Shown in pieces: positions 42,684-64,000 of a stretch of 64,000 nucleotides of DNA; within the stretch, counting starts at the first letter, position 1; every line of letters starts with the position of its first letter. The stretch is taken from NCBI GenBank assembly GCA_964466945.1, contig CAYXPA010000001.1, positions 5,516-69,515 of the forward strand. The letters are read 5' to 3'. The position numbers and the translations under genes were made by a program. The DNA is from an uncultured Verrucomicrobiota bacterium. GTDB taxonomy: Bacteria; Verrucomicrobiota; Verrucomicrobiia; Limisphaerales; J093. The notes beneath the pieces are model-generated. The model saw nothing but the letters and a program-made list of their open reading frames with translations. It ran no database searches and had not been told where the DNA came from.

Positions 42684-42685
42684 CC

Positions 42686-45391: not shown

Positions 45392-45477
45392 GCGGCGGAT
45401 GCAACCCCAGTCCGGCCCGCAGCGTCAAGCCCGAACCCGCGCGGTGGCCGGGCGCGCCGACCCGGCGCCTGTTGTTT

Positions 45478-45568
45478 CGCGGATTTTCAATCCGCGCGGG
45501 CGGCGAACAATCCAGCCCGCCAGCCGGATTGAAGCCGGCGATACGGCAGGTTTGAAACCTGCGCTACG
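45478..45568. repeat. partial copy of the hairpin-cluster MITE/REP-like element
   Basis: CGCGGATT-ttc-AATCCGCG (45478-45496), followed by cggcgatacggcaggtttgaaacctgcgctacg (45537-45568). The latter is nearly identical to 11788-11820 (cggcgatacggcaggttgggaaacctgcgctacg). Confidence 0.6.
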
Positions 45569-45656
45569 AAGCGAGGCGCTCGGCCACCCGGCAGCAGGGC
45601 CGCGCGTGCGGCCATGCCGGCCGGTAGTGACCGGCATTCAAGACCGCGGCCTCGGA

Positions 45657-45697
45657 CAAAAAAGCCGCCGCCGGCGGTGCGGACCAGCGGCGGCGGC
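45657..45697 (-). terminator. rho-independent terminator of the PQQ-like propeller gene
   Basis: Minus-strand RNA has GCCGCCGCCG, a 14-nt loop, CGGCGGCGGC, then UUUUUUG. This is a perfect 10-bp GC stem plus U-tract, 19 nt downstream of the stop at 45716. Confidence 0.7.
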
Positions 45698-45715
45698 CCA
45701 TTGCGGCGGGCAAGC

Positions 45716-46984: not shown

Positions 46985-47122
46985 GCGGCGTTAGATTGGA
47001 GCAGGTGGGGACAAATTCAAATCGCCCGCGGCGACGCGCTCCGCTGCGTCGGCCGCGCCGGCGCTCCGCTTTTGGATTGTCAACCCGGGACGGTCAGGTT
47101 GTGATGCAGGCTCGTTTGTCAC

Positions 47123-48813: not shown

Positions 48814-48913
48814 ACGTCCCGCCGTGAAGTTCCCGACCGACCGGAAAGAAGTTTGCCCTCGCGCGGCGCGGGCTGGCAGGATGGGCGGACTTTGACGCGT
48901 TTGCGCGAAATCC

Positions 48914-50311: not shown

Positions 50312-50351
50312 ACCGGCCGGGCCGACCGCGATTGTTTTTCAGCCGCCACGC

Positions 50352-51350
50352 ATGAAAACGAAAATCCGCAAACGCCCGGTCCGGAGCCAAAGCCCCCCGG
50401 TGTCGGTGGTGACCGGCGGGGCCGGGTTTCTGGGCTCGCACCTGGTGGACCTGCTCCTGGCGCGCGGGCACCGGGTCATTGTCCTGGACAACCTGGTTAC
50501 CGGCACGGTGGACAACATTGCCCACCATGCCGGCGACCCGAACTTCCGGTTCATCCATCAGGACGTGACCGAGTACCTGTTCCTGGACGGGCCGGTGGAT
50601 TACATCTGGCACTTCGCCTCGCCGGCCAGTCCGGTGGATTACCTCGAGCTGCCCATTCAGACCCTCAAGGTGGGCTCGCTGGGCACGCACAAGGCGCTGG
50701 GTCTGGCCCGGCACAAGGGCGCCCGGTTCCTGCTGGCCTCAACTTCAGAAGTGTACGGCGACCCGACGGTGCATCCGCAGCCGGAGACCTACTGGGGCAA
50801 CGTCAACCCCATCGGTCCGCGGGGTTGCTACGACGAGGCCAAGCGGTTCGCCGAGGCCCTGACCATGGCGTACCACAACGAGCACGGGTTGGAGACGCGG
50901 ATTGTGCGCATCTTCAACACCTACGGGCCGCGGATGCGCATGGGGGACGGTCGGGTGGTGCCGGCGTTCATCGCCGCCGCGCTGCGCAATCAGCCGCTCT
51001 CGGTCTTCGGCGACGGCACGCAGACGCGCAGTTTTTGCTATTGCTCGGACCTGATCGAGGGGGTGTACCGGCTGATGATGTCCGACTACCACCTGCCGGT
51101 GAACATCGGCAACCCGGAGGAACTGACCATGCGCGAGTTCGCCGAGGCGGTGATCCGGGCGGTGGGGTCGCGCAGCCGGATCGTGTACCGGCCGTTGCCG
51201 CAAGACGACCCCAAGCAGCGCCGGCCCGACATCACGCGAGCACAGAACTTGCTAAAATGGAACCCGCAGGTTCCCTTGGCCGAAGGCCTCGAGAAGACCA
51301 TCGAGTGGTTCCGATCGCGCCTCGGGGCTCGGTCCAAGACTGCCCGCTAA
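50352..51350 (+). CDS. UDP-glucuronate decarboxylase (UDP-xylose synthase), extended SDR
   Basis: [32 protein letters not shown] (YxxxK) and [10 protein letters not shown]; the overall pattern is UXS-like. Confidence 0.85.
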
Positions 51351-51484
51351 AACATCGCCGTGAAACGACGTTTGTGTTTGACCCGCAGGGTCAATTCCAG
51401 TAACCACCCTGCACCATCTCGACGTTGTGCCGGGCCGGGCCGAGGCGTAAGCTGGTCCCGGCGGGCGCAGCCCGGGCGGAAACC

Positions 51485-53431
51485 ATGCTGAATTCGTCGA
51501 AATCCTTTCTGTGCGTTGATTTTGGCGCCGGCACCCTGAAGGTTGCCGAGTTCGACGCCACTGAGGCGGGGGCCTTGCGCTTGCTGCGGTATGCGGTTCG
51601 CCCCCTGGGCCTGGCCGGCAGCCAGGACGCGGCACGGGACGGGGTGGTCCAACGGGCCTTGCAGGAAATCATGTCCGGCAAGACCTACACCGCCAAGCGC
51701 TGCAACGTGTCGGCGCCCGGGTTCCAGACCTTCTCGAAGTTCATCAAGCTGCCTCCGGTGGACGCCTCGAAGGCGACGCAGATCATCCAGTACGAGGCGC
51801 AGCAGAACGTGCCCTTCCCGCTTGAAGAGGTGGTGTGGGATTACCAAATCCTCGGCGCCCTGCCTTCCGGCGAACTGGAGGTGCTCCTGGTCGCCATCAA
51901 GACCAGCCTGGTCGAGGGCATGTTCAAGGCCGCCGAGTCGCAGGGGTTGCGCCTGGACCTGGTGGACGCCAGCCCGGCCGCGCTGGCCAACGCCTTTCGC
52001 TACAACTACAGCGACATGGAGGGCTGCTCCATGTTGCTGGACATCGGCGCCAAGACCAGCAACGTGCTGTTCTTCGAGAAGGACAAGGTTTACGCCCGCA
52101 CCATCAACATCGGCGCCAACGCCATCACCCAGGAATTTGCGGCCGAGGCCAAGCTGCCTTTCGCCGAGGCCGAGAAGATCAAGATCGCCGAAGGTTTCGT
52201 GAGCCTGGGCGGGGCCTACGAGGAACCGGAAAACCCCCGCCAGGCGGCCATCTCGAAGATCGCGCGGCAGGTGATGACCCGCCTGCACATCCAGGTCAAT
52301 CAGACCATCCAGTTTTACCGCAGCCAACAGGGCGGCTCGGCGCCGCAACGGGTGTTCCTGGCCGGGGGCGCCTCGATCATGGCCTACACGGCCCAGTTCT
52401 TCGCCGAGAAGCTCAACCTCCCGGTGGATTACTTCAATCCGTTCCGCAACGTCGAGATTGACCCCTCGGTCAACATCGAGGAGCTGGCCAAGGTCGCCCA
52501 CGCGTTTGGCGAGGTGGTGGGGTTGGGCCTGCGCAACCCGGCGCAGTGCCCGATCGAGCTGAACCTCATCCCCAAGACCATCCTCAAGCGCCAGCAGCTC
52601 AATCAGAAAAAACCGTACTTCATCGCTGCGGCCATCAGCCTCATTCTGGCCGTGCTGGCCATGGGGGTGTTCTTCGACCGCGTGGCGGCGGTCAAGCAGC
52701 AGGCCATTACCGAACGCGAACCCAAAGTGGCGCGCCTCCAACAAAAGGCCGACCAGCTCCGGGCGGCACTCAAACAACGCGACGAGGCCCAAAAGCTCGT
52801 GGACCAGTACACCGAGTGGCTGGAGACCCGGTTTTCTTGGGGGGACGTGCTCACCGAACTTCGCAACGCCCTGGTCAACACCGAGCGGGTGACCACCCAG
52901 CCGGGCATGCAGACCGCCGTTTGGGTCGAGCGCATGAGCGCCGAAAACCTTCAAGCGCCTCCCGAGGAGCAACAGGAAGAAACCGGAACCCGGCCCATGA
53001 TGATGGATTGGCGCATGATGCTCCGCTACGGCATCGGTCTTCCGCCCGAGGTCATGCGAAAACTCCGGGAAATGCAGGCTTCCGGGGAGCTGGACCAGGC
53101 CGCCCAAAGTGGTGGCGGGGAGGCCGGGGGGGCGGAAGGAGAGGCCGGAGGGGGCATGGACATGGGCGGCGCTCCGGCAGCGCCGAGCCGGCCCAACACC
53201 AACGAAGTCTCGATTATCAACCTCACCTGCCGGGCCATCAGTTGGAGCCGGGCCGACCCCCGGGCCGACCGTCAACTGGTGGACACCCTCGCCAACGTGC
53301 TCCTGCAAAGCCCGCTTTTTGTGGGCGGCACCAACGGCACCCGGCTTTCCGGGCAGATGCGACCGGACGAAGGCACCAATACCTTCCGGTTTGATGTCAA
53401 GCTCGTGCTCGCCAAGTCGATCAAACTGTAA
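51485..53431 (+). CDS. pilM: type IV pilus assembly PilM (actin-like ATPase) fused to a PilN-like TM/coiled-coil/periplasmic module
   Basis: N-terminal ~370 aa: FLCVDFGAGTLKVAEF..., VDASPAALANAF, LLDIGAKTSNV and FLAGGAS are the PilM/FtsA-like motifs. Next come KKPYFIAAAISLILAVLAMGVFF (TM), a coiled coil, a Met-rich/acidic-Gly insertion and a C-terminal alpha/beta domain. Start is ATG 51485. Confidence 0.8.
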   Translation: MLNSSKSFLCVDFGAGTLKVAEFDATEAGALRLLRYAVRPLGLAGSQDAARDGVVQRALQEIMSGKTYTAKRCNVSAPGFQTFSKFIKLPPVDASKATQIIQYEAQQNVPFPLEEVVWDYQILGALPSGELEVLLVAIKTSLVEGMFKAAESQGLRLDLVDASPAALANAFRYNYSDMEGCSMLLDIGAKTSNVLFFEKDKVYARTINIGANAITQEFAAEAKLPFAEAEKIKIAEGFVSLGGAYEEPENPRQAAISKIARQVMTRLHIQVNQTIQFYRSQQGGSAPQRVFLAGGASIMAYTAQFFAEKLNLPVDYFNPFRNVEIDPSVNIEELAKVAHAFGEVVGLGLRNPAQCPIELNLIPKTILKRQQLNQKKPYFIAAAISLILAVLAMGVFFDRVAAVKQQAITEREPKVARLQQKADQLRAALKQRDEAQKLVDQYTEWLETRFSWGDVLTELRNALVNTERVTTQPGMQTAVWVERMSAENLQAPPEEQQEETGTRPMMMDWRMMLRYGIGLPPEVMRKLREMQASGELDQAAQSGGGEAGGAEGEAGGGMDMGGAPAAPSRPNTNEVSIINLTCRAISWSRADPRADRQLVDTLANVLLQSPLFVGGTNGTRLSGQMRPDEGTNTFRFDVKLVLAKSIKL

Positions 53432-53434
53432 GGT

Positions 53435-54538
53435 ATGGATTGGATCAAAAAGAACCTCGGGCTGGTCATCGGTGGCCTGCTGGTCCTGGCAGGGCTGGGC
53501 GCTTCCGGCTATTACCTCTATACCAAAATCCAGCACAGCAACGCCATCAGCGCCCAGTTGGAGGAGCAGGACCAGAAGCTCCAGTCCCTCATGCGCATGA
53601 GACCCCACCCGGGCAACCGCAAGGTGGACAACATCGCGCTGGCCAAGGAACAGGAAGCCCAGTTGACCAATTTCGCCGCCCGCGCCCGCGCCCAGTTCGC
53701 GCCTGTGCCCTATCCCACCAACATCGAGAGCAGCAACTTCGGCTTGCTCCTGACCGACACCCTCGACCACCTGCATCGCCGGGCCCGAATGACGGGAACC
53801 AAACTGCCCGACGGCTACGCGTTCACCTTTGCCGCGCAAAAGCAGGCGCTGTCCTTCGAGCCCAAGAGCATCGAGCCCCTGACCCGCGCGCTGATGGAGG
53901 TCAAGACCCTGAGCGAAATCCTGCTCGATGCTCGCGTGATCGAGCTCGAGCGCATCCGCCGACCCTCCGTTGCGGCCAATGACACGCCCGGCCTGACCCT
54001 GGGCGGTGGCCCCTCCGACTACTGGACGCGCAAGCCGGTCACCAACGACCTGGCCGTGATCATCCCTTACGAACTGGTCTTTCGCGGTTTCAGCAGCGAA
54101 TTGCAGGCCTTCATGGAAGGTTTGGCCCGCAGCCCCCACAACTTCCTGCTCAAAAATCTCATCGTGGACACTGGGGAGACCAACGAGGTGGACATGTTCG
54201 CGCCGGACATGGGCCTGGGCGGCGACGAGGGCAACATGCCCCGGATGAGTCCGCAGATGCTGATGATGCTCCGCTATGGCTTGCGGCCCGGGATGCGTGG
54301 CATGCCCATGATGCCCCAGCCGACCGATGCCGCCACGGAGGCGGCGCGGGCCGAGGCCAACATCATCGTCCGCGAAAAACCCTTCCGCGTGACGGCCTGG
54401 GTGGATGTGGTGCGCCTGCGCGATCCCGCCGAGGCGGCCGCCAGCCGTACCCGGTCCCGCCGGGGTCCGGCCGCGCCCGGCGCCGAGAGCACCGGCGCCG
54501 AAACCGCACCGGAGGCCTCGACGGCGGCCGCATTCTAG
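53435..54538 (+). CDS. PilO-like pilus-assembly membrane protein, Amuc_1100-like architecture
   Basis: MDWIKKNLGLVIGGLLVLAGLGASGYYLY (TM), a coiled coil, and a periplasmic domain (IPYELVFRGFSSELQAFMEGLARSPHNFLLKNLIVD ... EKPFRVTAWVDVVRL). The domain is interrupted by a Met/Pro-rich loop. The resemblance to Akkermansia Amuc_1100 comes from my recollection of that sequence and was not aligned. Confidence 0.5.
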   Translation: MDWIKKNLGLVIGGLLVLAGLGASGYYLYTKIQHSNAISAQLEEQDQKLQSLMRMRPHPGNRKVDNIALAKEQEAQLTNFAARARAQFAPVPYPTNIESSNFGLLLTDTLDHLHRRARMTGTKLPDGYAFTFAAQKQALSFEPKSIEPLTRALMEVKTLSEILLDARVIELERIRRPSVAANDTPGLTLGGGPSDYWTRKPVTNDLAVIIPYELVFRGFSSELQAFMEGLARSPHNFLLKNLIVDTGETNEVDMFAPDMGLGGDEGNMPRMSPQMLMMLRYGLRPGMRGMPMMPQPTDAATEAARAEANIIVREKPFRVTAWVDVVRLRDPAEAAASRTRSRRGPAAPGAESTGAETAPEASTAAAF

Positions 54539-54541
54539 CCT

Positions 54542-55357
54542 ATGGAGTTGCTCAAGAAGCATTACGAGAAGCTGATCCTGAGCGTGGTCCTGCTGGGGTT
54601 GGCCGTGGCGGCGGGGTATCTGCCCTTTGAAGTGGCCCGCGTGCGGGAGCGCCTGGCGGAAGTCACCACCGCCATCGAGGACGGCAAGGTTGAACCCCTC
54701 AAACCACTGGACCTGACCACCAACGAGGCGGTGCTTCGCCGGGCTACCTCGAAGGTCGAGTTCGCTTTTGGCAAAGGTCCACACGGCCTGTTCAACCCGG
54801 CGGGCACCTGGCGCAAGGGCACGGGGCCCGGCGGCTGGCCGCCCATCCCGCCGGCCCCATCCGGCGTGGAGGGTCTCGTCGTGACCAGCATTACCCCGCT
54901 CATGCTGAAGGTGGAATTCCAGGGCGTCTCTCAGGGTAGCAGCGCGGCCTTCGGACTGCGCTACCGGTTCTACATCCAAAACCAGGCCTCGACCAATTCC
55001 ACCCTCGCCCGGGGCCGCATCCTGAACCTGGCCACCAACGACAAGCCCGGTGCGGCCGACCCGCTTTTGATCAAGGATATCATCGGCGCGCCCGAGGACC
55101 CCGACGCCATTCAGTTACAGCTCACCGACGCGCGCACCGTCATCACGGTCACCAAGGACAAGCCCTATACCGAAGTGGCGGGTTACTCGGCCGACCTGCG
55201 GCACGAACGCGAGGGCCGTAATTTCACGCGGCAACGCCCCGGCGCCAAACTCACCATCGCCGGCGCCACTTACAATGTCGTTGCCATCAGCGAGCGCGAC
55301 GTTACCATCGAGGACGACAAGACCAAACGCCGCACGGTCATTGCGCTGAACCGGTGA
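54542..55357 (+). CDS. membrane-anchored hypothetical protein of the pilus-assembly cluster (PilP position)
   Basis: N-terminal TM (LILSVVLLGLAVAAGYL) and a beta-rich periplasmic part, located between the PilO-like and secretin genes with 3-28 nt gaps. Confidence 0.5.
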   Translation: MELLKKHYEKLILSVVLLGLAVAAGYLPFEVARVRERLAEVTTAIEDGKVEPLKPLDLTTNEAVLRRATSKVEFAFGKGPHGLFNPAGTWRKGTGPGGWPPIPPAPSGVEGLVVTSITPLMLKVEFQGVSQGSSAAFGLRYRFYIQNQASTNSTLARGRILNLATNDKPGAADPLLIKDIIGAPEDPDAIQLQLTDARTVITVTKDKPYTEVAGYSADLRHEREGRNFTRQRPGAKLTIAGATYNVVAISERDVTIEDDKTKRRTVIALNR

Positions 55358-55385: not shown

Positions 55386-57905
55386 ATGTCTTCCGTTTCG
55401 AGAAAAACCACGCCCATGATTCGTTTCGCCTTCACCCTGCTGGCCGGCGCGGTGGTGTTGTCGGGCCCGCTGCCCGCCCGGGCCGCGCAACCGGACGCCG
55501 CCGCCCTTGCCGCCGAAGAAGCCGTGCGCCGGCAGGAACTGACCATCCTCCTGCGCAAAACCCTCCAAGAAGCGGCCGACGTGCGCGCGCGGGATGACCT
55601 GGCCAACGCCGTGCGCCTCTATGAGGAGTGCTGGAGCCTGGTCCAGCGCATCGGCGATGCCAGCATCGAGGCCGAGCGCAAACAAACCATCGCCGGGTTC
55701 ACCGAGGCCTACCTCACCCAGGCCCGCCGCTCCTATGCCAGCGCCGATTACGAGGAGGCCAACCGGCAACTCGCCCGGGTGTTGCGCGTGGACCCGCGCA
55801 ACGACGAAGCGCAAAAACTCAAGGCCCGTGTGGACCAGGCCCTCGAGGAACTCAAAGGGCGCGTGCCCAGCAAGGAAATCGTGGCCCAACTGCCCGAGGC
55901 GGCCCAGACGCGCACCGATGCCGCCACGCTGGTCCAGGATGGCAAGCTGCTTTATGAAATGGGGAAACTGGACGAGGCCGAGGCCAAGTTGCGCAAGGCC
56001 CGCGAGCTCGATCCTACCAACCGCGCCGCCCCCTACTACCTGACCCTGGTTCAAGAGGCCCGCTACTCTCAGGATGCCGTCAAGCGGGAAGTTATGGCCC
56101 GCCAGAAAATGGTCGAGGTCGAGCAGGCTTGGAATCCACCGCTGGCGCGGGAGAAAATGCCGCCGGGCAACCCATTTGCCCGCACCAACACCGTGCACAC
56201 CGGCCCGGGGCGGCGGATGATTTACGCCAAGCTCGACAAAATCCGGCTTGACCGGGTCGAGTTCCCCGGCGTGCCCTTGAGCGAAGTGGTGGCGTATCTG
56301 GACACGGAAGTTCGCCTGCGCGACCCGGACAAACGCGGCATCAATTTCATCCTGGCTCCCACCGTGGATTCGCAGGCTCCGGCTCAACTTGGTGTGCCTG
56401 GCCTCACCACGTTCGATCCGACGACCGGCGCGGCCGTACCCGCCGTCCCCCAGCAGGAGCAATTCGAGCTCGCCGATGTCGTGATCAAAATCTCGCCCCC
56501 GTTGCGCGACGTACGCCTGGCAGACTTGCTTGACGCCGTCATCAAGGTGGCCGACAAGCCGATCAAGTACTCGGTCGAGGAATACGCGGTCGTGTTCAGC
56601 AAAAAGACCCCGGAACCTCAGCAGCTTTTCACGCGCACTTTCCGGGTGAACCCGAACACGTTCGTGCAGGGCTTGGAAGGGGTGTACGCCATTGACTACT
56701 CGAGCGTCCTGGGCGGTGGTGGGTTCGGTGGAGGCGGTTTTGGTGGTGGCGGCTTTGGCGGCGGCGGTTTCGGCGGGGGTGGTGGGTTCGGTGGTGGTGG
56801 GTTCGGTGGCGGCGGTTTTGGCGGTGGCGGCTTCGGCGGCGGGGGCTATGGCGGCGGGGGGTTGACCATCGGACGCGTAACGATTGGCGGCGGCTACGGA
56901 GGCGGCGGTTTTGGCGGGGGTGGCTTCGGGGGTGGTGGTGGCTTCGGCGGGGGTGGCTTCGGGGGCGGCGGCCTGGGCGGCGGCGGCCTGGGCGGCGGCG
57001 GCCTGGGCGGCGGTGGCTTCGGCGGCGGTGCCGGCGGATTGGGCAGTGGGGGGACGCCCACCGGCGTGGCCGGGTCCACGTTGATGTCGTACGTCAACGA
57101 ATTGGTGCGCGCGTACTTTGTGGCCGCCGGGGTGGACCTGGGCGGGCCCAACATCCTGGGTCAGGGTTTCGGCGGGGCAGCCGGTGGCGCGTTTCCGGGA
57201 GCGGCCGGTGCGGGCGTGGGCTTCCAAAACGCCCAGGGCAAGGCCCTGTTCTTCAACGACCGCACGGGCATCCTGCTGGTGCGGGCCACGCTCGAGGACC
57301 TGGACATCATCGAGCAGGCCATTCAGGCGCTGAACTTCACTCCCGACCAGGTGACCATCGAGGTCAAGTTTGTCGAAATCGGCCAGGACGATGCCAAGGC
57401 CCTGGGTTTTGATTGGTTCCTGGGCAACTGGAACATGGCTGGCGGCAACCTCGGGCTCTCGGGCGGGACGGCGCCTTCTTATGCGGGCGCTCCTTCCGCC
57501 GCCAATCCGTACGGGGTGTTCCCCGGCAACTTCGGTGTTCCGGCCTTTGCCCCCAATCCTTCGACGGATCAGTTGATCACTTCCGGTCTGCGCGGAACCG
57601 AGATTGGCGGGACGGCCATCCCGACCCTGGCCACGCTGACCGGGATCATGACCGATCCCCAGTTTCGCGTGGTCATCCGCGCCCTCGAGCAACGGGGCGG
57701 GGTGGACATCCTCTCCGCGCCCAAGGTGACCACGGTCAGCGGCCGCCAGGCGCAGATTCAGATCATTGATCTCCAGACCATCGTCTCCTACAACCAGACC
57801 GGGGGCATCGGGGGCGGAGTGGGCACCGTGGGCGGAGTGGGCACCGTCGGAGGCGGCGTCGGCGCTGTGGGCGGCGGTGGGGTCGGGGTGGGCGTGGTGC
57901 AGTAA
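55386..57905 (+). CDS. secretin, N-terminal polypeptide: signal peptide, TPR region, N-domains with Gly-repeat insertion, and the first strands of the secretin domain
   Basis: Signal MIRFAFTLLAGAVVLSGPLPARAA, TPR-like helices, and N-domain patterns (ILLVRATLEDLDIIEQAIQALN; VTIEVKFVEI..DDAKALGFDW). The secretin-domain start is FRVVIRALEQRGGVDILSAPKVTTVSGRQAQIQI. The ORF ends in a Gly/Val tail and TAA 57903-57905. Confidence 0.8.
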   Translation: MSSVSRKTTPMIRFAFTLLAGAVVLSGPLPARAAQPDAAALAAEEAVRRQELTILLRKTLQEAADVRARDDLANAVRLYEECWSLVQRIGDASIEAERKQTIAGFTEAYLTQARRSYASADYEEANRQLARVLRVDPRNDEAQKLKARVDQALEELKGRVPSKEIVAQLPEAAQTRTDAATLVQDGKLLYEMGKLDEAEAKLRKARELDPTNRAAPYYLTLVQEARYSQDAVKREVMARQKMVEVEQAWNPPLAREKMPPGNPFARTNTVHTGPGRRMIYAKLDKIRLDRVEFPGVPLSEVVAYLDTEVRLRDPDKRGINFILAPTVDSQAPAQLGVPGLTTFDPTTGAAVPAVPQQEQFELADVVIKISPPLRDVRLADLLDAVIKVADKPIKYSVEEYAVVFSKKTPEPQQLFTRTFRVNPNTFVQGLEGVYAIDYSSVLGGGGFGGGGFGGGGFGGGGFGGGGGFGGGGFGGGGFGGGGFGGGGYGGGGLTIGRVTIGGGYGGGGFGGGGFGGGGGFGGGGFGGGGLGGGGLGGGGLGGGGFGGGAGGLGSGGTPTGVAGSTLMSYVNELVRAYFVAAGVDLGGPNILGQGFGGAAGGAFPGAAGAGVGFQNAQGKALFFNDRTGILLVRATLEDLDIIEQAIQALNFTPDQVTIEVKFVEIGQDDAKALGFDWFLGNWNMAGGNLGLSGGTAPSYAGAPSAANPYGVFPGNFGVPAFAPNPSTDQLITSGLRGTEIGGTAIPTLATLTGIMTDPQFRVVIRALEQRGGVDILSAPKVTTVSGRQAQIQIIDLQTIVSYNQTGGIGGGVGTVGGVGTVGGGVGAVGGGGVGVGVVQ
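56712..57053 (+). repeat. in-frame 15-bp tandem array encoding about 19 GGGG[F/Y/L] pentapeptides within the secretin gene
   Basis: The 114 codons read GGGGF x8, GGGGY, GGGGL, TIGRVTI, GGGY, GGGGF x4, GGGGL x3, GGGGF.... The DNA is imperfect ggcggNggNggcttc units. Confidence 0.9.
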
Positions 57906-57941: not shown

Positions 57942-58553
57942 ATGAAAATCGAACGCGTTTTGGCAACCCTCGGCTTGGTCGCGGGCCTCGGCATGTGGGG
58001 CGCGCGGGCGCAGGTGGTTCAACAGGCCGCGGCAACCCCGACCATTCAGCCCACCACCGTGCCCGTGCCCATCGGGCCGACCTTGGACGTGATCCCGCAC
58101 GTCTCGGCCGACGGCTATACCATCCAGCTCAATCTGCTGCCCACGGTGACCGAGTTCCTCGGTTACGACGACCCCGGCCAGTTCCGCGCGGTGGTGGGCA
58201 ACCTCGCCGCGCCGGTGCCGCTGCCGCGCTTTCGCATCCGCCAGGTCGTCACCAGCTCGATCGTCTGGGACGGCCAGACGGTCGTTTTGGGCGGCCTCAT
58301 TTCCGAGCGTGTGGCCAAGCGCAAGGACAAGGTGCCCGTGCTGGGCGACCTGCCGTTGGTGGGCCGGCTCTTCCGCAGCGAGGCCAATTCGAGTCAAAAG
58401 AAGAACCTCGTCATCTTCGTGACCCCCACCATCATTGACCCCCAGGGCAACCGGGTGCACGATGAGAACAACCTGCCGTTTGACCCCACCAAGTTGCCGC
58501 CCCAGACGCCCTTTGCGCCCGTGCCCACCCCGGCGTCGGAGGTTTCCAAGTGA
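57942..58553 (+). CDS. secretin, C-terminal polypeptide: own signal peptide plus the remainder of the secretin beta-barrel domain
   Basis: MKIERVLATLGLVAGLGMWGARAQ (signal-like), then IGPTLDVIPHVSADGYTIQLNLLPTVTEF, RFRIRQVVTSSIVWDGQTVVLGGLI and KVPVLGDLPLVGRLFRSEANSSQKKNLVIFVTPTII. These are the C-terminal hallmark motifs of secretin domains. Confidence 0.8.
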   Translation: MKIERVLATLGLVAGLGMWGARAQVVQQAAATPTIQPTTVPVPIGPTLDVIPHVSADGYTIQLNLLPTVTEFLGYDDPGQFRAVVGNLAAPVPLPRFRIRQVVTSSIVWDGQTVVLGGLISERVAKRKDKVPVLGDLPLVGRLFRSEANSSQKKNLVIFVTPTIIDPQGNRVHDENNLPFDPTKLPPQTPFAPVPTPASEVSK

Positions 58554-58637: not shown

Positions 58638-60557
58638 ATGCGAGGAATGCAAATCAAATTCTCTCAGGCCCGGCCGTCGGGCGGTTCTCGATTGGGGCGC
58701 GCCACAGTGTTGTTGGCCGCGGCCGCGGTGGCCGTGTTGTCCGGGGTCTCGGTCCGGGCCGACCTGACCCTGTCCCCCCAGGGCACCGAGTACCCGCTGA
58801 GTCGCGGCCTCATCGGCGACCAGACCCGGCCGGCCCTGAGCCTGACGAGCACCGGCGGTTACGTGGTTTGGCAGGACAACGCCGCGGACGGCGACGGCCT
58901 GGGGGTCATGGTCGCCGAACTCAACGCCTCGCTTTCCCCGATCCCGACGCGCATTTTCCGGGTGAACCAGACCACCACCGGGGACCAAGAAGCACCTGCT
59001 GTGGAAGCCCTGGCGGATGGGGGCGCCTTGGTGGTCTGGCAGGGCGGGAAGCAGGGCGAACAAGACATCTGGGCGCGCATCATCCAGCCCGGCGGCACCT
59101 TTCTGGGCGGCGAATTCCGCGTCAACACCTACACCAACGGCCAGCAAAGCTCACCCAGGCTGACCCGCCTTGGCGACGGCAACTTGGTGGTGGTCTGGAG
59201 CAGTTGGAACCAGGACGGCATGTACCAGGGCGTGTTCGGCCAGCGGCTTGCTCCTACAGGGCAAAAGCTGGGCAGCGAGTTTCAGGTCAACGAGTTTACT
59301 GCTTATAACCAGCGCGACCCGGCCCTCACCACCCTGGCCGACGGTTCGTTTGTCGTGGCCTGGGTCAGCGAGCAGCAGCGCTTCGAGAACAGCGTGGACA
59401 TTTTTGCCCGTCGCTACCTGCCCGACGGCACCCCGGCCGGAGGTGAGGTGCGGCTGAACACCACCACCAACCTGTGCGCCAATCCCGCACTGGCCCCGGG
59501 TTGGAACGGCGGGTTCATGGCTGCTTGGAGCCAACGCAACACCACCGAAATCACCAACATGTGGGACGTGGTGATGGGCAGCTACGAGGCCAACGGGAAT
59601 CTCCTGGGCTCGGTGGTGCTGGCCAATCAGTACCGCCCGCACAACCAGTTCTTCCCGCGGATCGCCGCCTTGGGCGGAACCCGCTTGGTGGTCTGGACCA
59701 GCTACGGCCAGGACGGCTCGCGCGAAGGCATCTACGGGCGGCTGGTGGGGCAGTTCGGGCCTCTGGGTGACGAGTTCCTCGTCAACACCGCCACCATCGG
59801 TCCGCAATTGCAGCCGGCGGTGGCCGCCGATGGCGACGGCCGCTTTCTTGTGACGTGGGCCGGTTTCGTGGGCGGAGACGCCAGCTTCGAGATTCTGGGC
59901 CAACGCTACGCGGGCGAGCTGGCCCTGCCGGCCCCCGGCGCGCCGTTGGTCACGGCCCTGGACGCCTACTCGCTGCTGGTGAGCTGGGCCCCGCTGGCCG
60001 GTTATCCCGATTTCGCCGCCTACCACTTGTACGTGGACGGCGCGGCCACGCCCCGGGTGCTGACCGAGAATTTCGTCATCCTCGACGATTTCAACCCGGC
60101 CACCACCCATACCTTCCGGTTGGCGTATGCGCTCAAGGACGGCCGTATTTCGCCGTTGTCCGAGCCGGCGACCGGCCAGACCTGGGGGCGGGACCGGAAC
60201 AACGACGGCTTGCCGGATGACTGGCAGGCCCGTTACTGGGGGCCGAACGCGGCGGCCTGGCCGGTCCCGGGGTTGGACCCGGACGGCGATGGTGCGTCCA
60301 ACCTGGCCGAGTTTTTGGCCGGGACCGACCCGCTGAACCCCGAGAGCGTCTTGCGGGTGTCCATCCAGCCCACCACCGGCGGGTTGTTACTGCAATGGAA
60401 TGCGGTGGCCGGCTCGATTTACCAACTGCAGGCGTCCGCCGACTTGAAGACCTGGTCCGACGCGGCCGGTCCGGCCTTTGCGCCGGGTGACCGCGCGTCC
60501 TCGGTGGTGCCCACCAACGCCGCGACCGTGTATTACCGTGTCATCCGCATCCGGTGA
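58638..60557 (+). CDS. secreted 7-bladed propeller-like repeat protein with FN3, Ca-binding DxDGDG and C-terminal beta-sandwich modules
   Basis: Signal LGRATVLLAAAAVAVLSGVSVRA. Seven repeats of about 50 aa follow the pattern F(R/Q)VN..T.G.Q..P.V..L.DG.FVV.W.S..QDG...G.FG.R. Next come an FN3-like module (LLVSWAPL...YHLYVDG) and DPDGDGASNLAEFLAGTDPLNP. Confidence 0.7.
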   Translation: MRGMQIKFSQARPSGGSRLGRATVLLAAAAVAVLSGVSVRADLTLSPQGTEYPLSRGLIGDQTRPALSLTSTGGYVVWQDNAADGDGLGVMVAELNASLSPIPTRIFRVNQTTTGDQEAPAVEALADGGALVVWQGGKQGEQDIWARIIQPGGTFLGGEFRVNTYTNGQQSSPRLTRLGDGNLVVVWSSWNQDGMYQGVFGQRLAPTGQKLGSEFQVNEFTAYNQRDPALTTLADGSFVVAWVSEQQRFENSVDIFARRYLPDGTPAGGEVRLNTTTNLCANPALAPGWNGGFMAAWSQRNTTEITNMWDVVMGSYEANGNLLGSVVLANQYRPHNQFFPRIAALGGTRLVVWTSYGQDGSREGIYGRLVGQFGPLGDEFLVNTATIGPQLQPAVAADGDGRFLVTWAGFVGGDASFEILGQRYAGELALPAPGAPLVTALDAYSLLVSWAPLAGYPDFAAYHLYVDGAATPRVLTENFVILDDFNPATTHTFRLAYALKDGRISPLSEPATGQTWGRDRNNDGLPDDWQARYWGPNAAAWPVPGLDPDGDGASNLAEFLAGTDPLNPESVLRVSIQPTTGGLLLQWNAVAGSIYQLQASADLKTWSDAAGPAFAPGDRASSVVPTNAATVYYRVIRIR

Positions 60558-60561
60558 TTTT

Positions 60562-62091
60562 ATGCGCGCCTCACTGAACCGAATTCTGCTGATTCTGGCG
60601 CTGGTGGGCGGGTTACCGCGCGCACAGGCCTTCGCCCTCTTGGGGGCCTTGGACACGTGGATGACTGAGGAAATCGGGTACAACCTGGCCGACCCGGGCG
60701 GTCCGATGAATCTGGGTGAGGAATACCGGTGGAACATGCCGATCGTCACCTATGGTTTCGACGAGTCGTTTTTGAACTACTTTGGTCAGCGGGGGGTCGA
60801 GGAGGTCGAAAAGGCCATCAAGATTCTCAACGACCTGCCGCCGGTCTCGCAGATGAGCCCGGACCTGTCCGAGTTTCCGCTGGACACCCGGAGGATGAAC
60901 TACCGGGCCAACGCGCTGTCCGTTTACGACATGAAGTCTTGGGCTCTGGCCTCGTTGCTGGAAAGTATGGGGTTGGCGCCGGCCGAGCGCTATGTCTGGA
61001 CCTTGCGCGCGCGCTTCGCCGGCCCGCCGGTTACCTACTCGGTGATCAAGCGCAACTTTGACCCGGTGACTTTCAACCCCTCCAGCTATGTCAACGGGGT
61101 GCTGTACACTTACCAGATCATTCAAACGTACACGACGCCCACTTGGGAGGCCGTGGAATTCGAGGTGGACCCAAGTGTCCCCAGCGTCAGCTCCGTGACC
61201 GCCTTGAACTTGTGGGGAGGTACCGTACTCGCCAGTGGGATTTCCGCCGTTCTCTCGCCCGGCCTGTTTTTTACCGGGCTGACCCGGGACGATGTCGGCG
61301 GTCTGCGATACATCTATCGCCCGGACAACCCCAACGTTGAAACCCTGATGACCAACGCCGTTCAGGCTCCCTTGGGTACTCAGCGGGGCAATTACGTGAT
61401 CGGGGTGGATTCGCAGGGCAAGGTCAACGGCTGGGGCGCGCCGCCCGGCTTCACCAACGTCGTGGCCGGGACCAACGCCCCGGCGGTCAACATCGCCCTG
61501 CGGCCGGGCGTGGACAAAATCACCTTCGTGCGCGTCAATTTCGACTCGCTGGTGGGGGCCTGGGTTACCCAGACCAACGTGTACGAAGACCGGTACATCT
61601 CGAACTTCGTCCAACGCACTCAATTGGTTCAGCGCACCTTACCCGCACCGGACATCCTCTTCGATGCCGCAGACTTGGGGGTGGTGGATGCCATTCCGCT
61701 GGTGTATGGCAAGTCCATGAACTTGGTCAGCCAGGATGCCATCAACGGGATCACCGTCTTGGCCGGCCCGGGGCAAATTTTTCCGCCCCACACGATTACT
61801 TTCGGCAAGCTGGGGGAGTATCTGATCAACATACCGGAGGGCGGCCAGACCGATGTTCTGGTGGGCTTTATCTGGGGAGCCTACGACGGCTCCGAAGCCG
61901 AACCCTACATCTTCCCGCAGGGCGCCAGCATCCGGGCGTTGGAGCGACTGATCTTCGACGGCAAGCTGCGGGACCGCAATCAGAACCCGTGGCTTTCCCC
62001 GTTCATCATTGTCAATGCCGGGACCGGGCAAGGACAGGGCGGGCAAACGGGCACGGGCGGTTTTGGCGGCGGCGGAGGCACTACTCCGTGA
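60562..62091 (+). CDS. secreted hypothetical protein with Gly-rich C-terminus
   Basis: Signal MRASLNRILLILALVGGLPRAQA, then FALLGALDTWMTEEIGYNL..GGPMNLGEEYRWNMPIVTYGFDESFLNYFG. The protein ends GTGQGQGGQTGTGGFGGGGGTTP. Start is ATG 60562. No family name recalled. Confidence 0.6.
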   Translation: MRASLNRILLILALVGGLPRAQAFALLGALDTWMTEEIGYNLADPGGPMNLGEEYRWNMPIVTYGFDESFLNYFGQRGVEEVEKAIKILNDLPPVSQMSPDLSEFPLDTRRMNYRANALSVYDMKSWALASLLESMGLAPAERYVWTLRARFAGPPVTYSVIKRNFDPVTFNPSSYVNGVLYTYQIIQTYTTPTWEAVEFEVDPSVPSVSSVTALNLWGGTVLASGISAVLSPGLFFTGLTRDDVGGLRYIYRPDNPNVETLMTNAVQAPLGTQRGNYVIGVDSQGKVNGWGAPPGFTNVVAGTNAPAVNIALRPGVDKITFVRVNFDSLVGAWVTQTNVYEDRYISNFVQRTQLVQRTLPAPDILFDAADLGVVDAIPLVYGKSMNLVSQDAINGITVLAGPGQIFPPHTITFGKLGEYLINIPEGGQTDVLVGFIWGAYDGSEAEPYIFPQGASIRALERLIFDGKLRDRNQNPWLSPFIIVNAGTGQGQGGQTGTGGFGGGGGTTP

Positions 62092-62139
62092 GCAGGTCCG
62101 GTTGACCGCGGGCACGGTTCTGACGACTTTTACGTGGCT

Positions 62140-64000
62140 ATGAAGCGGATTTGCAAACTGGCGGTGGCGGTGGGCCTGCTGTCCTGGCTGGAGGCGCAGG
62201 CGGTCGGGCCGCAGCCCTTGTACGTCAACAGCGGCGCCACCAGTTATGCGGTGAAGCCGAATGCGCCGCCGGGCAATTTCGCCTGGCTGCAACCCCGCGT
62301 GCTGCCCGCGCCGGAGGTGCCGCCCATTTTCGTGAATCCCGGCTCGGTGACGTTCACCAATCCTCCCCAAATCAACGCCACGGCCTTTTTGAACCTGGGC
62401 ACCTTCGGGGTCCAGACGCTGCTGCCCTTCGACTTCCAAAACACCCTGTATTTCACCAACCGGGGCACCATGATCAGCGCGCCGGGCTTCCGGTTTGATT
62501 ACACGGACGACTTCGGCATCCGGCGGCCGGCGGCGCGGTTCGTCAACGAAGCGTCCGGCATCATTCAATGCGTGGACGCGAACCAATACTTGGGGTACAG
62601 CAACGTGTACTTTCAGACCATGCTGCAAATCCGGGCGACGAACATCCTCAACCCTGGCTACGTGCAGGTCGGAAACAACGGGACCATCCGCATCGAGGGC
62701 CAGAATGTGAACCTCAGCCGGGGCGGCTTGGAAGTCGTGCCCATCGAAAGTTCACCCTTTGCCAACGTGTATTTCGACAACACCGGCGACGGCATCCCGG
62801 ATTCCTTCTTGGGTGACAACGCCATCTACGACCTGTACTGGGGGGCCGGCATTCAGCAGGTTCCGGTTCCCGGCCCGTTGAACACGGCCAGCGTGCTGCG
62901 GTTTTTGGGCACGGATTTGCTCGCCAGTTCCGGCCCTCATGTGGTGCAGGTCGCTCCCACTTGGCAGAACCAAACCGTGGCCTTCTCGACGTACGTCTTG
63001 GGCGAGTACTTTACGGCCTTCGCCAACACCGGGGTGGTGGCCTCGACCTTCCTGACGCTGACCAACGCGGACGGCAGCACCACCAACATTCTTCTGCCGA
63101 CCAACATTTTCCGCCAAGCCGTGGTGGTGGGGGTCAACGATACCAACTTCACCGTGCGCACCCGATTCGGGCCGCCGGGTCCGGCAGGGCTGGGCTTTGG
63201 GTTGGTCGCGGTCGAGATTGCCTCACAGACCACGAATGTGGCCCAAGGGGCTCCCCAGACCGACACCTTGTACTTTGTGGATTACCTTGGTTACGACACC
63301 AACACCTTGGTGGTGACCAATTTGGGGGTTTGGGTTCCGACGGGCCGCCCTTACGCGTACGAGATTTACCGGGAGCTGCCGGCGTTTGATTTCCTGGGTT
63401 CCTACGGCAACACCTCGCTCTTCAGCGGGTTCCTGTACAGCACCAATTTTTCCAATGTTTTTGCCACCAACTTGTACGCGGGTTATTGGGCCTCGATTGA
63501 CAGCATCCAGTCGCGTCCGCCGCAGGTGCCCGGGGTGGCTCCCACCAATACGCCCGGGCGCATTGAGATCGTGGCGGATACCCTCAACTTGAACCGCACC
63601 CGGATTCGTGGCGAGACGCTGGTGGAAATCAAGGCCGCCCACTTGCAGAGCAGTGACGGGACCTTGGTGGACGTGGAAAATCTGGTCTATGACCTGGCTT
63701 CCACCAACGGGCTGCTGACGGTGCGCAACCTGGCCAAGGATTCATTCCACGCGATCCGCGGGGAATTGCGGGCGTGGACGGGCATCTGGTCCAACCAGTT
63801 CGCCCTGGTGTTGTCCAACTGGTTCATTGACGCCAACACCAACTACTACAACCCGGTCACCAACCCGATTGACATCAACCTGTACTGCCTGATCCTGAGC
63901 GCGGATTTCCTCACCCGCACCCAGCAGGTCATCACCCACACCCTGTCCCTCAACAGCACCAATGTGGTGGTGGATGACCCCTACCTGGTCAGCGACAAGC
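62140..64000 (+). CDS. large secreted Asn/Thr-rich protein, N-terminal 620 codons only (runs off right edge)
   Basis: Own translation from ATG 62140: MKRICKLAVAVGLLSWLEAQAVGPQPLYVNSGATSYAV...FTNRGTMISAPGFRFDY...GNNGTIRIEGQNVNLSRGG... It is open to position 64000 with no stop, which is why it is missing from the ORF track. The repetitive beta-helix-like N/T/G pattern suggests an adhesin-type giant protein. Confidence 0.6.
   Translation, partial: MKRICKLAVAVGLLSWLEAQAVGPQPLYVNSGATSYAVKPNAPPGNFAWLQPRVLPAPEVPPIFVNPGSVTFTNPPQINATAFLNLGTFGVQTLLPFDFQNTLYFTNRGTMISAPGFRFDYTDDFGIRRPAARFVNEASGIIQCVDANQYLGYSNVYFQTMLQIRATNILNPGYVQVGNNGTIRIEGQNVNLSRGGLEVVPIESSPFANVYFDNTGDGIPDSFLGDNAIYDLYWGAGIQQVPVPGPLNTASVLRFLGTDLLASSGPHVVQVAPTWQNQTVAFSTYVLGEYFTAFANTGVVASTFLTLTNADGSTTNILLPTNIFRQAVVVGVNDTNFTVRTRFGPPGPAGLGFGLVAVEIASQTTNVAQGAPQTDTLYFVDYLGYDTNTLVVTNLGVWVPTGRPYAYEIYRELPAFDFLGSYGNTSLFSGFLYSTNFSNVFATNLYAGYWASIDSIQSRPPQVPGVAPTNTPGRIEIVADTLNLNRTRIRGETLVEIKAAHLQSSDGTLVDVENLVYDLASTNGLLTVRNLAKDSFHAIRGELRAWTGIWSNQFALVLSNWFIDANTNYYNPVTNPIDINLYCLILSADFLTRTQQVITHTLSLNSTNVVVDDPYLVSDK

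Follow-up and report, generated by a model that had tools for sequence, protein, structure and literature searches.

Large gated pores called secretins serve secretion of types II and III, type IV pili and the export of filamentous phage, and how so wide a channel stays tight when idle is debated. In the 64,000-nucleotide stretch of DNA analysed here (the window), a secretin-like open reading frame carries 114 residues of Gly-rich pentapeptides, and the question that this locus raises is whether such an array has a role in the channel and, if so, which. A first-pass annotation, made from the letters and their translated ORFs, had proposed that the array lies in a periplasmic N domain of the secretin, that it is old and maintained, and that it recalls Phe-Gly meshwork barriers or Gly-rich elastic proteins.

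ORF1 (55386..57905, + strand; 839 aa; assigned by Pfam, NCBIfam and AF2) and ORF2 (57942..58553, + strand; 203 aa) are the N-terminal and C-terminal parts of a split type IV pilus secretin of the Amuc_1098 kind. On the secretin identity, Pfam, NCBIfam, a PDB profile search and Foldseek comparison of a fused homologue agree with the earlier annotation. Positions 1-41 of Pfam Secretin (PF00263) match ORF1 residues 766-806 and positions 45-169 match ORF2 residues 32-166 (E 8e-30), and the PDB profile search returned PulD and GspD matches down to E 1e-23. Foldseek with the ORF1 model gave TPR matches only, owing to the poor model of its truncated secretin part, and AF2 was therefore applied to a fused homologue, P0018 (51% identical). 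It is on P0018, and not on the split protein itself, that the secretin fold is seen, with a double β-barrel and two inner gate hairpins; its best Foldseek match was VcPilQ (6w6m; E 7e-19), and further matches were BfpB, GspD, PulD, PaPilQ, InvG and pIV.

Amuc_1098, the PilQ of Akkermansia muciniphila, has 907 residues comprising TPRs and a secretin domain and is the most abundant outer-membrane protein of that organism (PMC4960237). The protein in the window shares its TPR N-terminus followed by a secretin, and an operon with PilM and an Amuc_1100-family protein; it differs in being split into two ORFs and in its profile scores. Against NF042912 (Amuc_1098_fam, equivalog; cut-off 750 bits), ORF1 scored 252.5 bits and ORF2 126.4 bits, and the fused homologues P0018 and P0014 scored 338 and 344 bits, so the split secretin is a relative of Amuc_1098 rather than an equivalog. 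The upstream partners (51425..55357, + strand) are a PilM-like ORF of the Amuc_1101 family (51425-53431; 493 bits against NF045709, cut-off 650), a 367-aa Amuc_1100-family ORF (53435-54538; 54 bits against NF038287, cut-off 180) and, at 54542-55357, a 271-aa protein of no known family. The first two thus score below their equivalog cut-offs; Pfam PF28028 (Amuc_1100) matches the orthologues of the 367-aa protein in two related loci, L001 and L002, where the gene order is the same. The closest matches overall are MAGs labelled Verrucomicrobiales.

ORF1 had been taken as the whole secretin, which proved incomplete: the frame ends where the first gate hairpin has its tip, and ORF2 supplies the remainder. 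Within ORF1 the secretin domain covers 57348..57800 (+ strand) and reaches as far as the first strand of that hairpin, as judged from Pfam Secretin positions 1-41, a profile alignment to Vibrio cholerae GspD and NF042912 positions 418-610. A second Gly/Val tract, GGIGGGVGTVGGVGTVGGGVGAVGGGGVGVGVVQ (57801..57902, + strand), does end the ORF as described before, forming its C-terminal tail at the hairpin tip. This tail aligns with the GspD segment just after the hinge Gly453 and with the PulD 462-470 region (PMC7545093, PMC6882859), and the equivalent tract of P0018 (residues 727-742) is the low-confidence tip of a hairpin whose strands AF2 places at residues 712-725 and 744-766. ORF2 begins with its own signal peptide, MKIERVLATLGLVAGLGMWGARA/Q (57942-58010, + strand), and also matches NF042912 positions 646-804. 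The same split is found in 28 of 76 related loci, and each of the best 120 homologues of ORF2 is a separate protein, 177-253 aa in length. The idea that a frameshift or a sequencing error had produced the break was rejected, since the C-terminal part lies in any of the three relative reading frames depending on lineage and always starts with a signal peptide.

Upstream of the secretin domain, ORF1 consists of a predicted Sec signal peptide, MSSVSRKTTPMIRFAFTLLAGAVVLSGPLPARA (55386..55484, + strand; read from the sequence, with low AF2 confidence at residues 1-34), a TPR or helical-repeat region (55497..56132, + strand; residues 38-249; Pfam TPR, AF2 helices with pLDDT >90 and Foldseek TPR matches), and an N0-like α/β domain (56205..56603, + strand; residues 274-406; AF2 secondary structure, pLDDT ~90), whose sequence pattern appears typical of secretin N0 domains. 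Next comes an N3 domain interrupted by the insert. Its first strand and first helix, FTRTFRVNPNTFVQGLE (56628..56678, + strand; residues 415-431; AF2 strand 415-420, helix 423-431), contain R417, P423, F426 and G429, which are invariant in 119 sequences. Its second and third strands and second helix, ALFFNDRTGILLVRATLEDLDIIEQAIQAL (57243..57332, + strand; residues 620-649; AF2 strands 620-624 and 629-634, helix 636-649), align in the family profile to PulD 317-373, the end of N3 leading into the secretin domain. The β-α-β-β-α topology of N3 directly before the secretin domain is therefore evident from both AF2 and the profile alignment, and the AF2 model of P0018 has the same N3 with a disordered insert. 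The array is an enlarged variable loop of the N3 ring domain, lying between its first helix and second strand, the site of the variable loop in other secretins (PMC6155069). The earlier placement of the array in a loop of an N domain is supported, the domain being the one directly before the secretin domain, and the loop can now be named as the one tied to the periplasmic constriction (PMC6155069, PMC6882859).

The N3 variable loop of InvG and PulD lacks order when the secretin is on its own and has been tied to the constriction (PMC6155069, PMC6882859); that of InvG has been proposed to form the constriction, and with a needle in place it threads outwards (PMC6155069). The site is the same in InvG (217-267), in PulD (288-303) and here. 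At its ordered ends the InvG loop has a short helix and a segment resembling a strand (PMC6155069), and the insert in the window likewise contains a strand motif and a helix. The InvG loop is about 50 aa long and that of PulD has 16 unmodelled residues; the insert here comprises 188 residues, 55% of them Gly, with quasi-repeats in two uncharged Gly-rich arms around a central strand motif; an amphipathic helix comes next, and then a short Gly tract, the third of the insert. The helix, MSYVNELVRAYFVA (57084..57125, + strand; AF2 helix 567-580, pLDDT 68-85), carries the family motif VRxFFxAAGV, found in 117 of 121 family members. The third, Gly/Ala-rich tract, LGQGFGGAAGGAFPGAAGAGVG (57156..57221, + strand; residues 591-612; AF2 pLDDT <50), is variable among homologues and present in only part of the family. 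The ~180-aa insert spans only about 40 positions of the NF042912 profile, and when searched alone it had no match among NCBIfam profiles.

The coordinates and repeat pattern first given for the array were borne out by the ORF translation and by Tandem Repeats Finder (period 15, 20.5 copies, 72% matches, 56712-57028). Positions 56712-57053 encode 114 residues, 86 of which are Gly, compared with 73 Gly in the other 725 residues of ORF1, and one of the 114 is charged. Nineteen G3-5-F/Y/L units (13 F, 2 Y, 4 L) are distributed over two arms, so that ORF1 reads RTFRVNPNTFVQGLEGVYAIDYSSVL, arm 1, TIGRVTI, arm 2, TPTGVAGS. Arm 1 (56712..56861, + strand; residues 443-492) has 10 units: seven GGGGF, one GGGGGF, one GGGGY and the GGGG of a GGGGL unit. 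Arm 2 (56886..57053, + strand; residues 501-556) has GGGY, four GGGGF (one of them GGGGGF), three GGGGL and GGGGF, and ends in a GGGAGGLGSGG tail. Both arms are predicted to be disordered (AF2 pLDDT ~30 over residues 443-558). The segment between them, LTIGRVTI (56862..56885, + strand), which with its following Gly had been described as a mere interruption, is a conserved motif of consensus h-x-h-[P/G/A]-R-V-x-V (in short, h-x-h-P-R-V-x-V); a strict form of it occurs in 81 and a loose form in 105 of 121 family members, and AF2 places a 4-residue strand in it at 495-498 with low confidence. It is probably a short β-strand or docking element, and the array is accordingly better described as two arms flanking a probable docking strand. 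The ORFs on the opposite strand over the array, such as the poly-Pro/Lys frame at 56894-57154, simply mirror its Gly codons.

A Gly-rich tract is present at the same site in all of the 120 best homologues (41-94% identity). Relatives of the secretin, not individually checked for the tract, are encoded at no fewer than 540 loci in a genome scan of a one-genome-per-species collection, nearly all in Verrucomicrobiota. The residue between the Gly runs varies with lineage: the commonest among the 121 proteins is Phe in 35, Leu in 16, Ile in 15 and Tyr in 12, with Ala (8), Arg (8), Gln (5) and Met (3) less usual, and about one family member in five has a polar or charged residue (Arg, Gln or Ser) there. 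It is Gly-richness, usually with hydrophobic residues, that is conserved, and not the FG motif; insert length ranges from 65 to 192 aa. Farther out, the region upstream of the FFNDRxGxLxVRAT motif is Gly-poor in 66 of 96 representative relatives, and the eight of these that were read have short non-Gly linkers in place of the array. Gly-poor relatives retain the VRxFFxAAGV helix and lack both arms and the central motif; since they share the same N3 motif, the arms are an added property that folding does not need. The gate-tip segment follows the same division: its median length is 61 aa, with 21% Gly, in the Gly-rich class, whereas Gly-poor relatives have a median of 43 aa, with 7% Gly (Spearman 0.57, without phylogenetic correction).

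Could the array have been created by assembly or sequencing? Contigs of many related MAGs end inside it, as might be expected of a stretch that short reads handle poorly, which makes the array lengths of other short-read genomes less certain. The same gene was, however, recovered from two independent JGI metagenome assemblies (L083 and L084), in which it differs at 0 and 2 nucleotides and the array is equally long, so that three independent assemblies of this lineage agree; the frame stays open throughout, and homologues from hundreds of samples have the same architecture. An artefact is hardly credible, and for the array in the window the identical lengths in L083 and L084 argue directly against it.

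Selection and slippage have both left traces. Per-codon differences of the array from L001 are 0.446 at position 3 versus 0.043 at positions 1 and 2, and from L002 0.607 at position 3 versus 0.17 and 0.11, and amino-acid divergence of the array is not above that of the rest of the protein; with changes falling at third codon positions, array composition is under purifying selection. The codon variation noticed earlier was also confirmed, the Gly codons being heterogeneous (GGC 53%, GGT 27%, GGG 15%, GGA 5%). The notion that the array is old and maintained, and not a product of recent slippage, therefore stands for its presence and composition but not for its unit number. Comparison of orthologues, as had been suggested, found the tract throughout the best homologues and its length drifting between close strains: arrays span 94-120 aa among sequences 99.4-99.9% identical in one species-level group, which suggests that slippage is active. 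Arrays are identical in four pairs at ≥99.9% nucleotide identity; one pair at 99.86% shows a difference of 7 aa, and at ~99.4% the arrays are 2-20 aa apart, differences to which short-read assembly error may contribute. Between P0014 and P0016, which are >99% identical, a 51-aa deletion removes arm 1 and the central motif. With a 15-nt in-frame unit, 72% matches and the frame kept by every length variant seen, the array does not behave as a phase-variable repeat. Arm lengths have 5th percentiles of 33 and 21 aa and do not co-vary (Spearman 0.10). A rigid two-stranded stalk, for which the arms would need to co-vary in length, was rejected on that ground. Polyglycine-II or another ordered Gly structure was likewise rejected as the main reading, there being no fixed periodicity, as judged from Gly runs of 3 to 11 residues within and between proteins and from the very low AF2 confidence.

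Slippage of GGC-rich codons might by itself have inflated a permissive surface loop of no specific role, with selection doing no more than excluding harmful residues. Such a nearly neutral expansion suits a genome of 68% G+C, shifts in unit number at 0.1-0.6% nucleotide divergence, the P0014/P0016 deletion, the wide range of lengths and inter-run residues, the only exact repeat of at least 30 nt in the array (the three GGGGL units), which points to recent duplication, and the fact that related secretins work with a short linker. We consider it rather unlikely. The tract has not been lost from any of the 120 best homologues, down to 41% identity; third-position substitutions outnumber those at the first and second positions about tenfold, among mixed Gly codons; both arms hold lower length bounds; a conserved motif is embedded between them; and other Gly-rich stretches of at least 20 aa in the window are short, reaching 25 aa at most.

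Our own reading, put forward tentatively and with more doubt than conviction, is that the disordered, cohesive, two-armed loop serves as a displaceable plug or gasket below the gate. Solely from loop-position homology with InvG and PulD, we infer that in an assembled 12-15-mer the arms would start at a lumen-facing N3 position, the constriction site of those two secretins. While the channel is idle they may collapse into a cohesive, compliant mass of about 100-130 kDa of polyglycine with hydrophobic side chains, sealing the vestibule under the gate; a pilus filling the lumen would push this mass aside, much as the loop of InvG passes outwards between N3 and N1. By docking as a strand on some folded portion of the ring, the central motif would probably hold the arms at their middle, so that each subunit would contribute two closed loops rather than a free tail, and the Gly-rich extension of the gate-hairpin tip, which co-occurs with N3 arrays in the same clade, might belong to the same soft seal. 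The earlier arithmetic of more than 1000 repeat residues for 12-15 subunits is right, with oligomer size, like pilus production, assumed from other secretins. The compact volume of 12-15 arrays was computed as 124,000-155,000 Å3, and an N3 lumen 60-75 Å wide and 30-40 Å high holds 85,000-177,000 Å3 (diameters from PMC7545093 and PMC6155069). Against a plug stand the position of the equivalent InvG loop outside the lumen when the needle is bound, the changes in insert length and unit number, the P0014/P0016 deletion, the uncorrelated arm lengths, and the variable inter-run residue; as this is polar or charged in part of the family, cohesion by hydrophobic side chains cannot be universal.

The insert may instead exit between N3 and N0, with the Gly arms as flexible leashes and the central strand and helix docking on neighbouring subunits, on N0/TPR, on Amuc_1099/1100-type partners or on peptidoglycan, thereby stabilising or spacing the periplasmic rings without occluding the channel. 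We regard this possibility as doubtful. In its favour, the ordered loop ends of needle-bound InvG enter the interface of the N3 ring, with a short helix packed between N1 and N3 (PMC6155069), and what is conserved in the insert of the window is likewise a strand motif and a helix. By the volume estimate, moreover, the lumen has no room for a pilus plus the arrays, and a family with a TPR region instead of AMIN domains may need other anchoring. Yet a leash does not call for 40-60 residues of conserved composition on both sides, the two arm lengths are uncoupled, the helix is kept in Gly-poor relatives that have neither arms nor central motif, and the arrays co-occur with a Gly-rich gate tip that is certainly in the lumen.

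Cohesive FG domains of the GLFG type are uncharged, Gly-rich and disordered; they contain Phe at repeated positions, and the ring symmetry of a channel multiplies their number. The array in the window shares each of these sequence traits by composition or prediction, its arms are comparable in composition to cohesive GLFG domains, and the Phe-Gly repeats of all subunits could on that basis form a selective phase, a sieve deciding passage; we know of no transport-receptor-like partner or carrier. The arms, with 13 Phe and 2 Tyr spaced by 4-5 Gly, begin at the loop linked to the channel constriction (PMC6155069, PMC6882859). Even so, a sieve of this kind seems quite improbable. The first-pass likening to FG repeats holds for the Gly-Phe repeats and their predicted disorder, but Phe is not the conserved repeat residue among the 121 proteins: it is the commonest in only 35, Phe or Tyr in 47, and its place is taken by Leu, Ile, Tyr, Met, Ala, Arg or Gln according to lineage, which weakens a strict nucleoporin reading. 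The spacers here are moreover pure Gly rather than polar, the loops are closed and not free tails, and the expected cargo is a filament: a pilus, rigid and 5-8 nm thick (PMC7545093), would displace a meshwork, not partition into it. A bolder form of the plug, improbable though slightly less so than the sieve, is that a polymer seal partly replaces the rigid gate, N3 loops and gate-tip flaps together making a self-healing, gel-like plug pierced by the pilus. In about a third of lineages the flaps would be free chain ends, as the gene is split exactly at the gate tip. Such a seal, if real, would be a bacterial counterpart, in an outer-membrane channel, of the nuclear-pore permeability barrier.

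A plug would be a material solution to channel sealing undescribed for bacterial outer membranes; should the plug prove false, the array would still be a clear case of fast length turnover with composition held by selection. The family has relatives of Akkermansia PilQ among its members, and nature supplies in this clade several variants that bear on the problem of the idle channel: a disordered, Gly-rich N3 loop of 65-192 aa, a Gly-rich extension of the gate tip, and, in many lineages, a secretin cut at that tip and exported as two pieces, with related short-linker secretins and fused genes as built-in controls. Such Gly arrays were not found described in the literature on Gly-rich or disordered secretins, PilQ, Verrucomicrobia or the N3 constriction. 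Quasi-repeats of the GGGGF, GGGGY, GGGGL or GGGGM kind have almost the composition of the glycine loops of keratin and loricrin, of abductin and other Gly-rich elastomeric proteins and of plant Gly-rich proteins, which would suit flexible loops that adhere to one another; these proteins are unrelated and eukaryotic, and the analogy is one of material alone, with no homology implied. Among secretins, Neisseria PilQ carries octapeptide 'small basic repeats' in its periplasmic part, which are in frame and vary in copy number between strains. It thus resembles the protein in the window in being a secretin with a strain-variable, in-frame peptide repeat, and differs from it in that its repeats are basic, rich in Ala, Lys and Gln rather than in Gly, and located near the N-terminus, not in the N3 loop.

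The array lies within ORF1 (55386-57905, plus strand; 839 residues), the N-terminal part of a split secretin, and is a 114-residue run (56712-57053) of 86 Gly, 13 Phe, 5 Leu, and 2 Tyr. It comprises, in order, ten G4-5-F/Y/L units, the octapeptide LTIGRVTI, nine more units, and a short GGGAGGLGSGG tail; the Gly-rich halves around the octapeptide are referred to here as arm 1 and arm 2. Tandem Repeats Finder detected a period of 15 with 20.5 copies and 72% matches in the encoding DNA, where the Gly codons are mixed (GGC 53%, GGT 27%, GGG 15%, and GGA 5%) and an exact repeat of at least 30 nucleotides is common to three GGGGL units only. The same gene is present in two independent JGI metagenome assemblies (L083 and L084) with 0 and 2 nucleotide differences and an array of equal length. 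Composition, unit order, repeat scan, and these matching assemblies together bear out the array and its coordinates as described in the first-pass annotation, which was made from the sequence alone.

A Gly-rich tract occupies the equivalent place in all 120 of the best homologues (41-94% identity). The insert that carries it, measured from the first helix to the FNDRxG strand, is 65-192 residues long (median 127) and 26-57% Gly, with Gly runs of 3-11 residues, and its layout is the same throughout: Gly arm 1, a short hydrophobic motif, Gly arm 2, a VRxFFxAAGV helix and, sometimes, a third Gly tract. The helix was found in 117 of 121 proteins and the central motif, h-x-h-[P/G/A]-R-V-x-V, in 81 (strict form) or 105 (loose form), so that LTIGRVTIG, previously taken for a mere interruption of the repeats, is a conserved motif of the insert. 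When the array was compared with those of two relatives, per-codon differences were 0.446 and 0.607 at position 3, values inflated by the alignment of non-orthologous units, and 0.043-0.17 at positions 1 and 2. This concentration of differences at position 3, together with an amino-acid divergence of the array that is not above that of the rest of the protein, indicates at the sequence level that array composition is under purifying selection.

The structure of ORF1 was predicted by AF2 using a 119-sequence alignment. The model contains a TPR region, helical and predicted with confidence (residues 38-249), an N0-like domain (274-406), the first strand (415-420) and helix (423-431) of N3, the ring-building domain directly before the secretin domain, and then the array (443-558), predicted to be disordered, at a pLDDT of about 30. 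These are followed by a helix (567-580; pLDDT 68-85), a second low-confidence tract (591-612), and strands 620-624 and 629-634 with helix 636-649, the last three of which align by profile to PulD 317-373, where N3 ends and leads into the secretin domain. The AF2 order and this alignment place the array after the first helix of N3 and before its second strand, in agreement with its earlier assignment to an N-domain loop, and we regard the identity and topology of the array-bearing secretin as highly probable. Among known features, the N3 variable loop of the secretins InvG, PulD, and GspD comes closest: the array site is that of the InvG "variable insertion" (InvG residues 217-267), for which the equivalent loop lacks order in the structures of other secretins and which has been proposed as the source of the periplasmic constriction in the closed channel (PMC6155069). 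By homology, the array would face the channel lumen in this protein as well.

An exhaustive HMMER search returned 556 representative clusters at E ≤1e-30. Among 96 representatives with the N3 strand motif FFNDRxGxLxVRAT, the region upstream is Gly-rich in 23 and Gly-poor in 66, the latter being mostly longer proteins (1000-2187 residues). In the Gly-poor examples read, the linker from the first helix to the VRxFFxAAGV-type helix is short and non-Gly (about 10-15 residues in the shortest) and lacks the central motif; the arms are thus a clade-specific addition that the fold does not need.

In ORF1, Pfam detects TPR repeats and, at residues 766-806, the Secretin profile from position 1 to 41; profile positions 45-169 fall in the next ORF (ORF2, 57942-58553, plus strand; 203 residues, E 8e-30). 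The nearest NCBIfam model for both is NF042912, "Amuc_1098 family type IV pilus outer membrane protein"; with 252 and 126 bits, far under the equivalog cut-off of 750 bits, the split secretin falls outside what is its nearest named family. Three ORFs upstream encode a PilM-like protein (Amuc_1101 family; 51425-53431, 668 residues, 493 bits), an Amuc_1100-family protein (53435-54538, 367 residues; 54 bits to NF038287, below its cut-off, with Pfam PF28028 matching the orthologues), and a 271-residue protein of unknown family, and a PilT-family ATPase (42299-43753) lies ahead of this pilus-like operon. On the basis of the PilM-like, Amuc_1100-family, and PilT-family neighbors and the NF042912 match, the locus is related to the Amuc_1098-1102 pilus-like cluster of Akkermansia, in which PilQ (907 residues, TPR and secretin) is the most abundant outer-membrane protein of the organism (PMC4960237). 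The closest public genomes are Verrucomicrobiales MAGs (96-97% amino-acid identity), and a pattern scan of one genome per species identified at least 540 related loci labeled almost exclusively as Verrucomicrobiota, Limisphaerales, Pedosphaera, or "subdivision 3". With the 367-residue ORF, an environmental verrucomicrobium encodes a member of the Amuc_1100 family, to which an intensively studied immunomodulatory protein of Akkermansia belongs. The PilM-like ORF has a C-terminal extension past the PilM domain with a Gly/Glu/Ala-rich stretch, GGGEAGGAEGEAGGGMDMGG, at 53111-53170.

The Gly/Val tract at the end of ORF1 (57801-57902) aligns to the segment of V. cholerae GspD right after Gly453, the gate hinge (PMC7545093), and to the region of PulD 462-470, which is unmodelled in the PulD structure. 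An AF2 model of P0018, a fused homologue, has VcPilQ, BfpB, GspD, PulD, InvG, and pIV as its best Foldseek matches and shows the equivalent tract (727-742), with low confidence, as the tip of a long hairpin (E712-725 / E744-766). The alignments and the hairpin model thus place the end of ORF1 at the first gate hairpin's tip. After a 36-nucleotide spacer, ORF2 opens with its own Sec signal peptide (MKIERVLATLGLVAGLGMWGARA, with Q directly after it), and the returning hairpin strand and the remaining barrel come from this ORF. An error at the ORF1/ORF2 break was considered and rejected: among 76 related loci, 28 are split (46 are fused), and the C-terminal part, which can occupy any one of the three relative frames, invariably begins with a signal peptide. 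The best 120 of 1934 ORF2 homologues are all stand-alone proteins of 177-253 residues; stand-alone C-terminal halves form a large family. The gate segment has a median of 61 residues and 21% Gly in the fused class with Gly-rich N3, versus 43 residues and 7% Gly in the Gly-poor class, and N3 Gly and the gate tip are associated with a Spearman's rho of 0.57, uncorrected for phylogeny. A literature search for these Gly arrays and for the split secretin found no description of either, and the split at the gate tip adds to the interest of the array. The cultured relative Limisphaera sp. VF-2 (locus L022) could serve as an experimental system; its secretin is fused, with Gly-Phe arms that are shorter, a VVPRVNVAGG motif, and a gate tip rich in Gly and Ala.

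In a secretin of 12-15 subunits, the arrays would total 1368-1710 residues (103-128 kDa), with a compact volume of about 124,000-155,000 Å3. This would be near that of the whole N3 lumen, estimated at 85,000-177,000 Å3 for a ring 60-75 Å wide and 30-40 Å high (diameters from PMC6155069 and PMC7545093). Were the central motif to dock as a strand, each subunit would contribute two closed loops. A poly-Gly chain that is uncharged and carries hydrophobic side chains is expected to collapse and to adhere to itself. Given this expected self-adhesion and the similarity of the array and lumen volumes, we favor, tentatively and as a proposal that may well prove wrong, a compliant plug or gasket beneath the gate, which would have to give way to a pilus of 5-8 nm width, as in InvG.

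The array might instead serve as an outward-threaded tether or ring stabilizer. The InvG loop threads out between N3 and N1 when the needle occupies the lumen (PMC6155069). A literal FG-nucleoporin-like selective phase, close to the first-pass reading of FG-repeat-like material at a channel entrance, draws on a likeness of the material to GLFG nucleoporin domains (it also resembles keratin or loricrin glycine loops), but the key FG feature, a conserved Phe, is absent: the residue between Gly runs is lineage-specific, with F commonest in 35 of 121 proteins, L in 16, I in 15, Y in 12, A and R in 8 each, Q in 5, and M in 3. The behavior of array length would fit a permissive loop that has expanded nearly neutrally. 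Array lengths in a sister lineage, which shares 91% nucleotide identity with the window, are 94, 113, 113, 114, 116, 116, and 120 residues; the arrays are identical in four pairs at ≥99.9% identity, 7 residues apart in one pair at 99.86%, and 2-20 residues apart in pairs at about 99.4%. Unit number therefore turns over quickly, and the earlier view of an old and maintained array holds for the retention of the tract and its constrained composition, the latter weighing against neutrality, but not for the number of units. Part of the length variation may be assembly error, since many contigs end inside the array. Such ends are very frequent among related MAGs and metagenomes (L003/L012, L005, L035, L050, L058, L076, and L091-L093), the secretin gene of the closest MAG (Verrucomicrobiales bacterium ETS170220_bin_174) is broken over two contigs, and the Gly array is a systematic short-read assembly breakpoint. 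Likewise, between P0014 and P0016, homologous proteins that are >99% identical, a clean in-frame 51-residue deletion takes out arm 1 and the central PRV motif and is either a natural and viable loss or the product of repeat collapse in assembly. These breakpoints are what an artefact has in its favor as an explanation of the array; the concordant JGI assemblies speak for a genuine sequence.

Elsewhere in the window, a 537-residue protein downstream of the secretin (60478-62091) has a C-terminal Gly/Thr tail, ending in GTGQGQGGQTGTGGFGGGGGTTP before the stop, that is similar to the GTGTTP ends seen in N-terminal parts of other split secretins, and an ORF from about 62140, which continues past the window edge, has a signal peptide (MKRICKLAVAVGLLSWLEAQA) at its start; the junction at 62014-62140 thus has the arrangement of Gly/Thr tail, stop, and signal peptide seen in the split secretin. 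Besides the PilT-family ATPase, the region before the pilus-like operon (42299-51350) carries genes for a TPR protein, an EpsH-family exosortase (47123-48091), a Bac_transf sugar transferase, and an NAD-dependent epimerase. Two related loci (L001 and L002) keep the order transferase-epimerase-PilM, which suggests that the secretin system is linked to an exopolysaccharide or PEP-CTERM locus. Further upstream, 13462-22723 encodes a class II aldolase and an aldehyde dehydrogenase, along with a protein whose C-terminal domain is a PduL (PTAC) phosphate propanoyltransferase, a set that recalls the fucose/rhamnose microcompartment genes of the Planctomycetes-Verrucomicrobia group. Genes for ThrRS, NadA, and Dxr lie upstream of this set and identify the window as ordinary chromosome.
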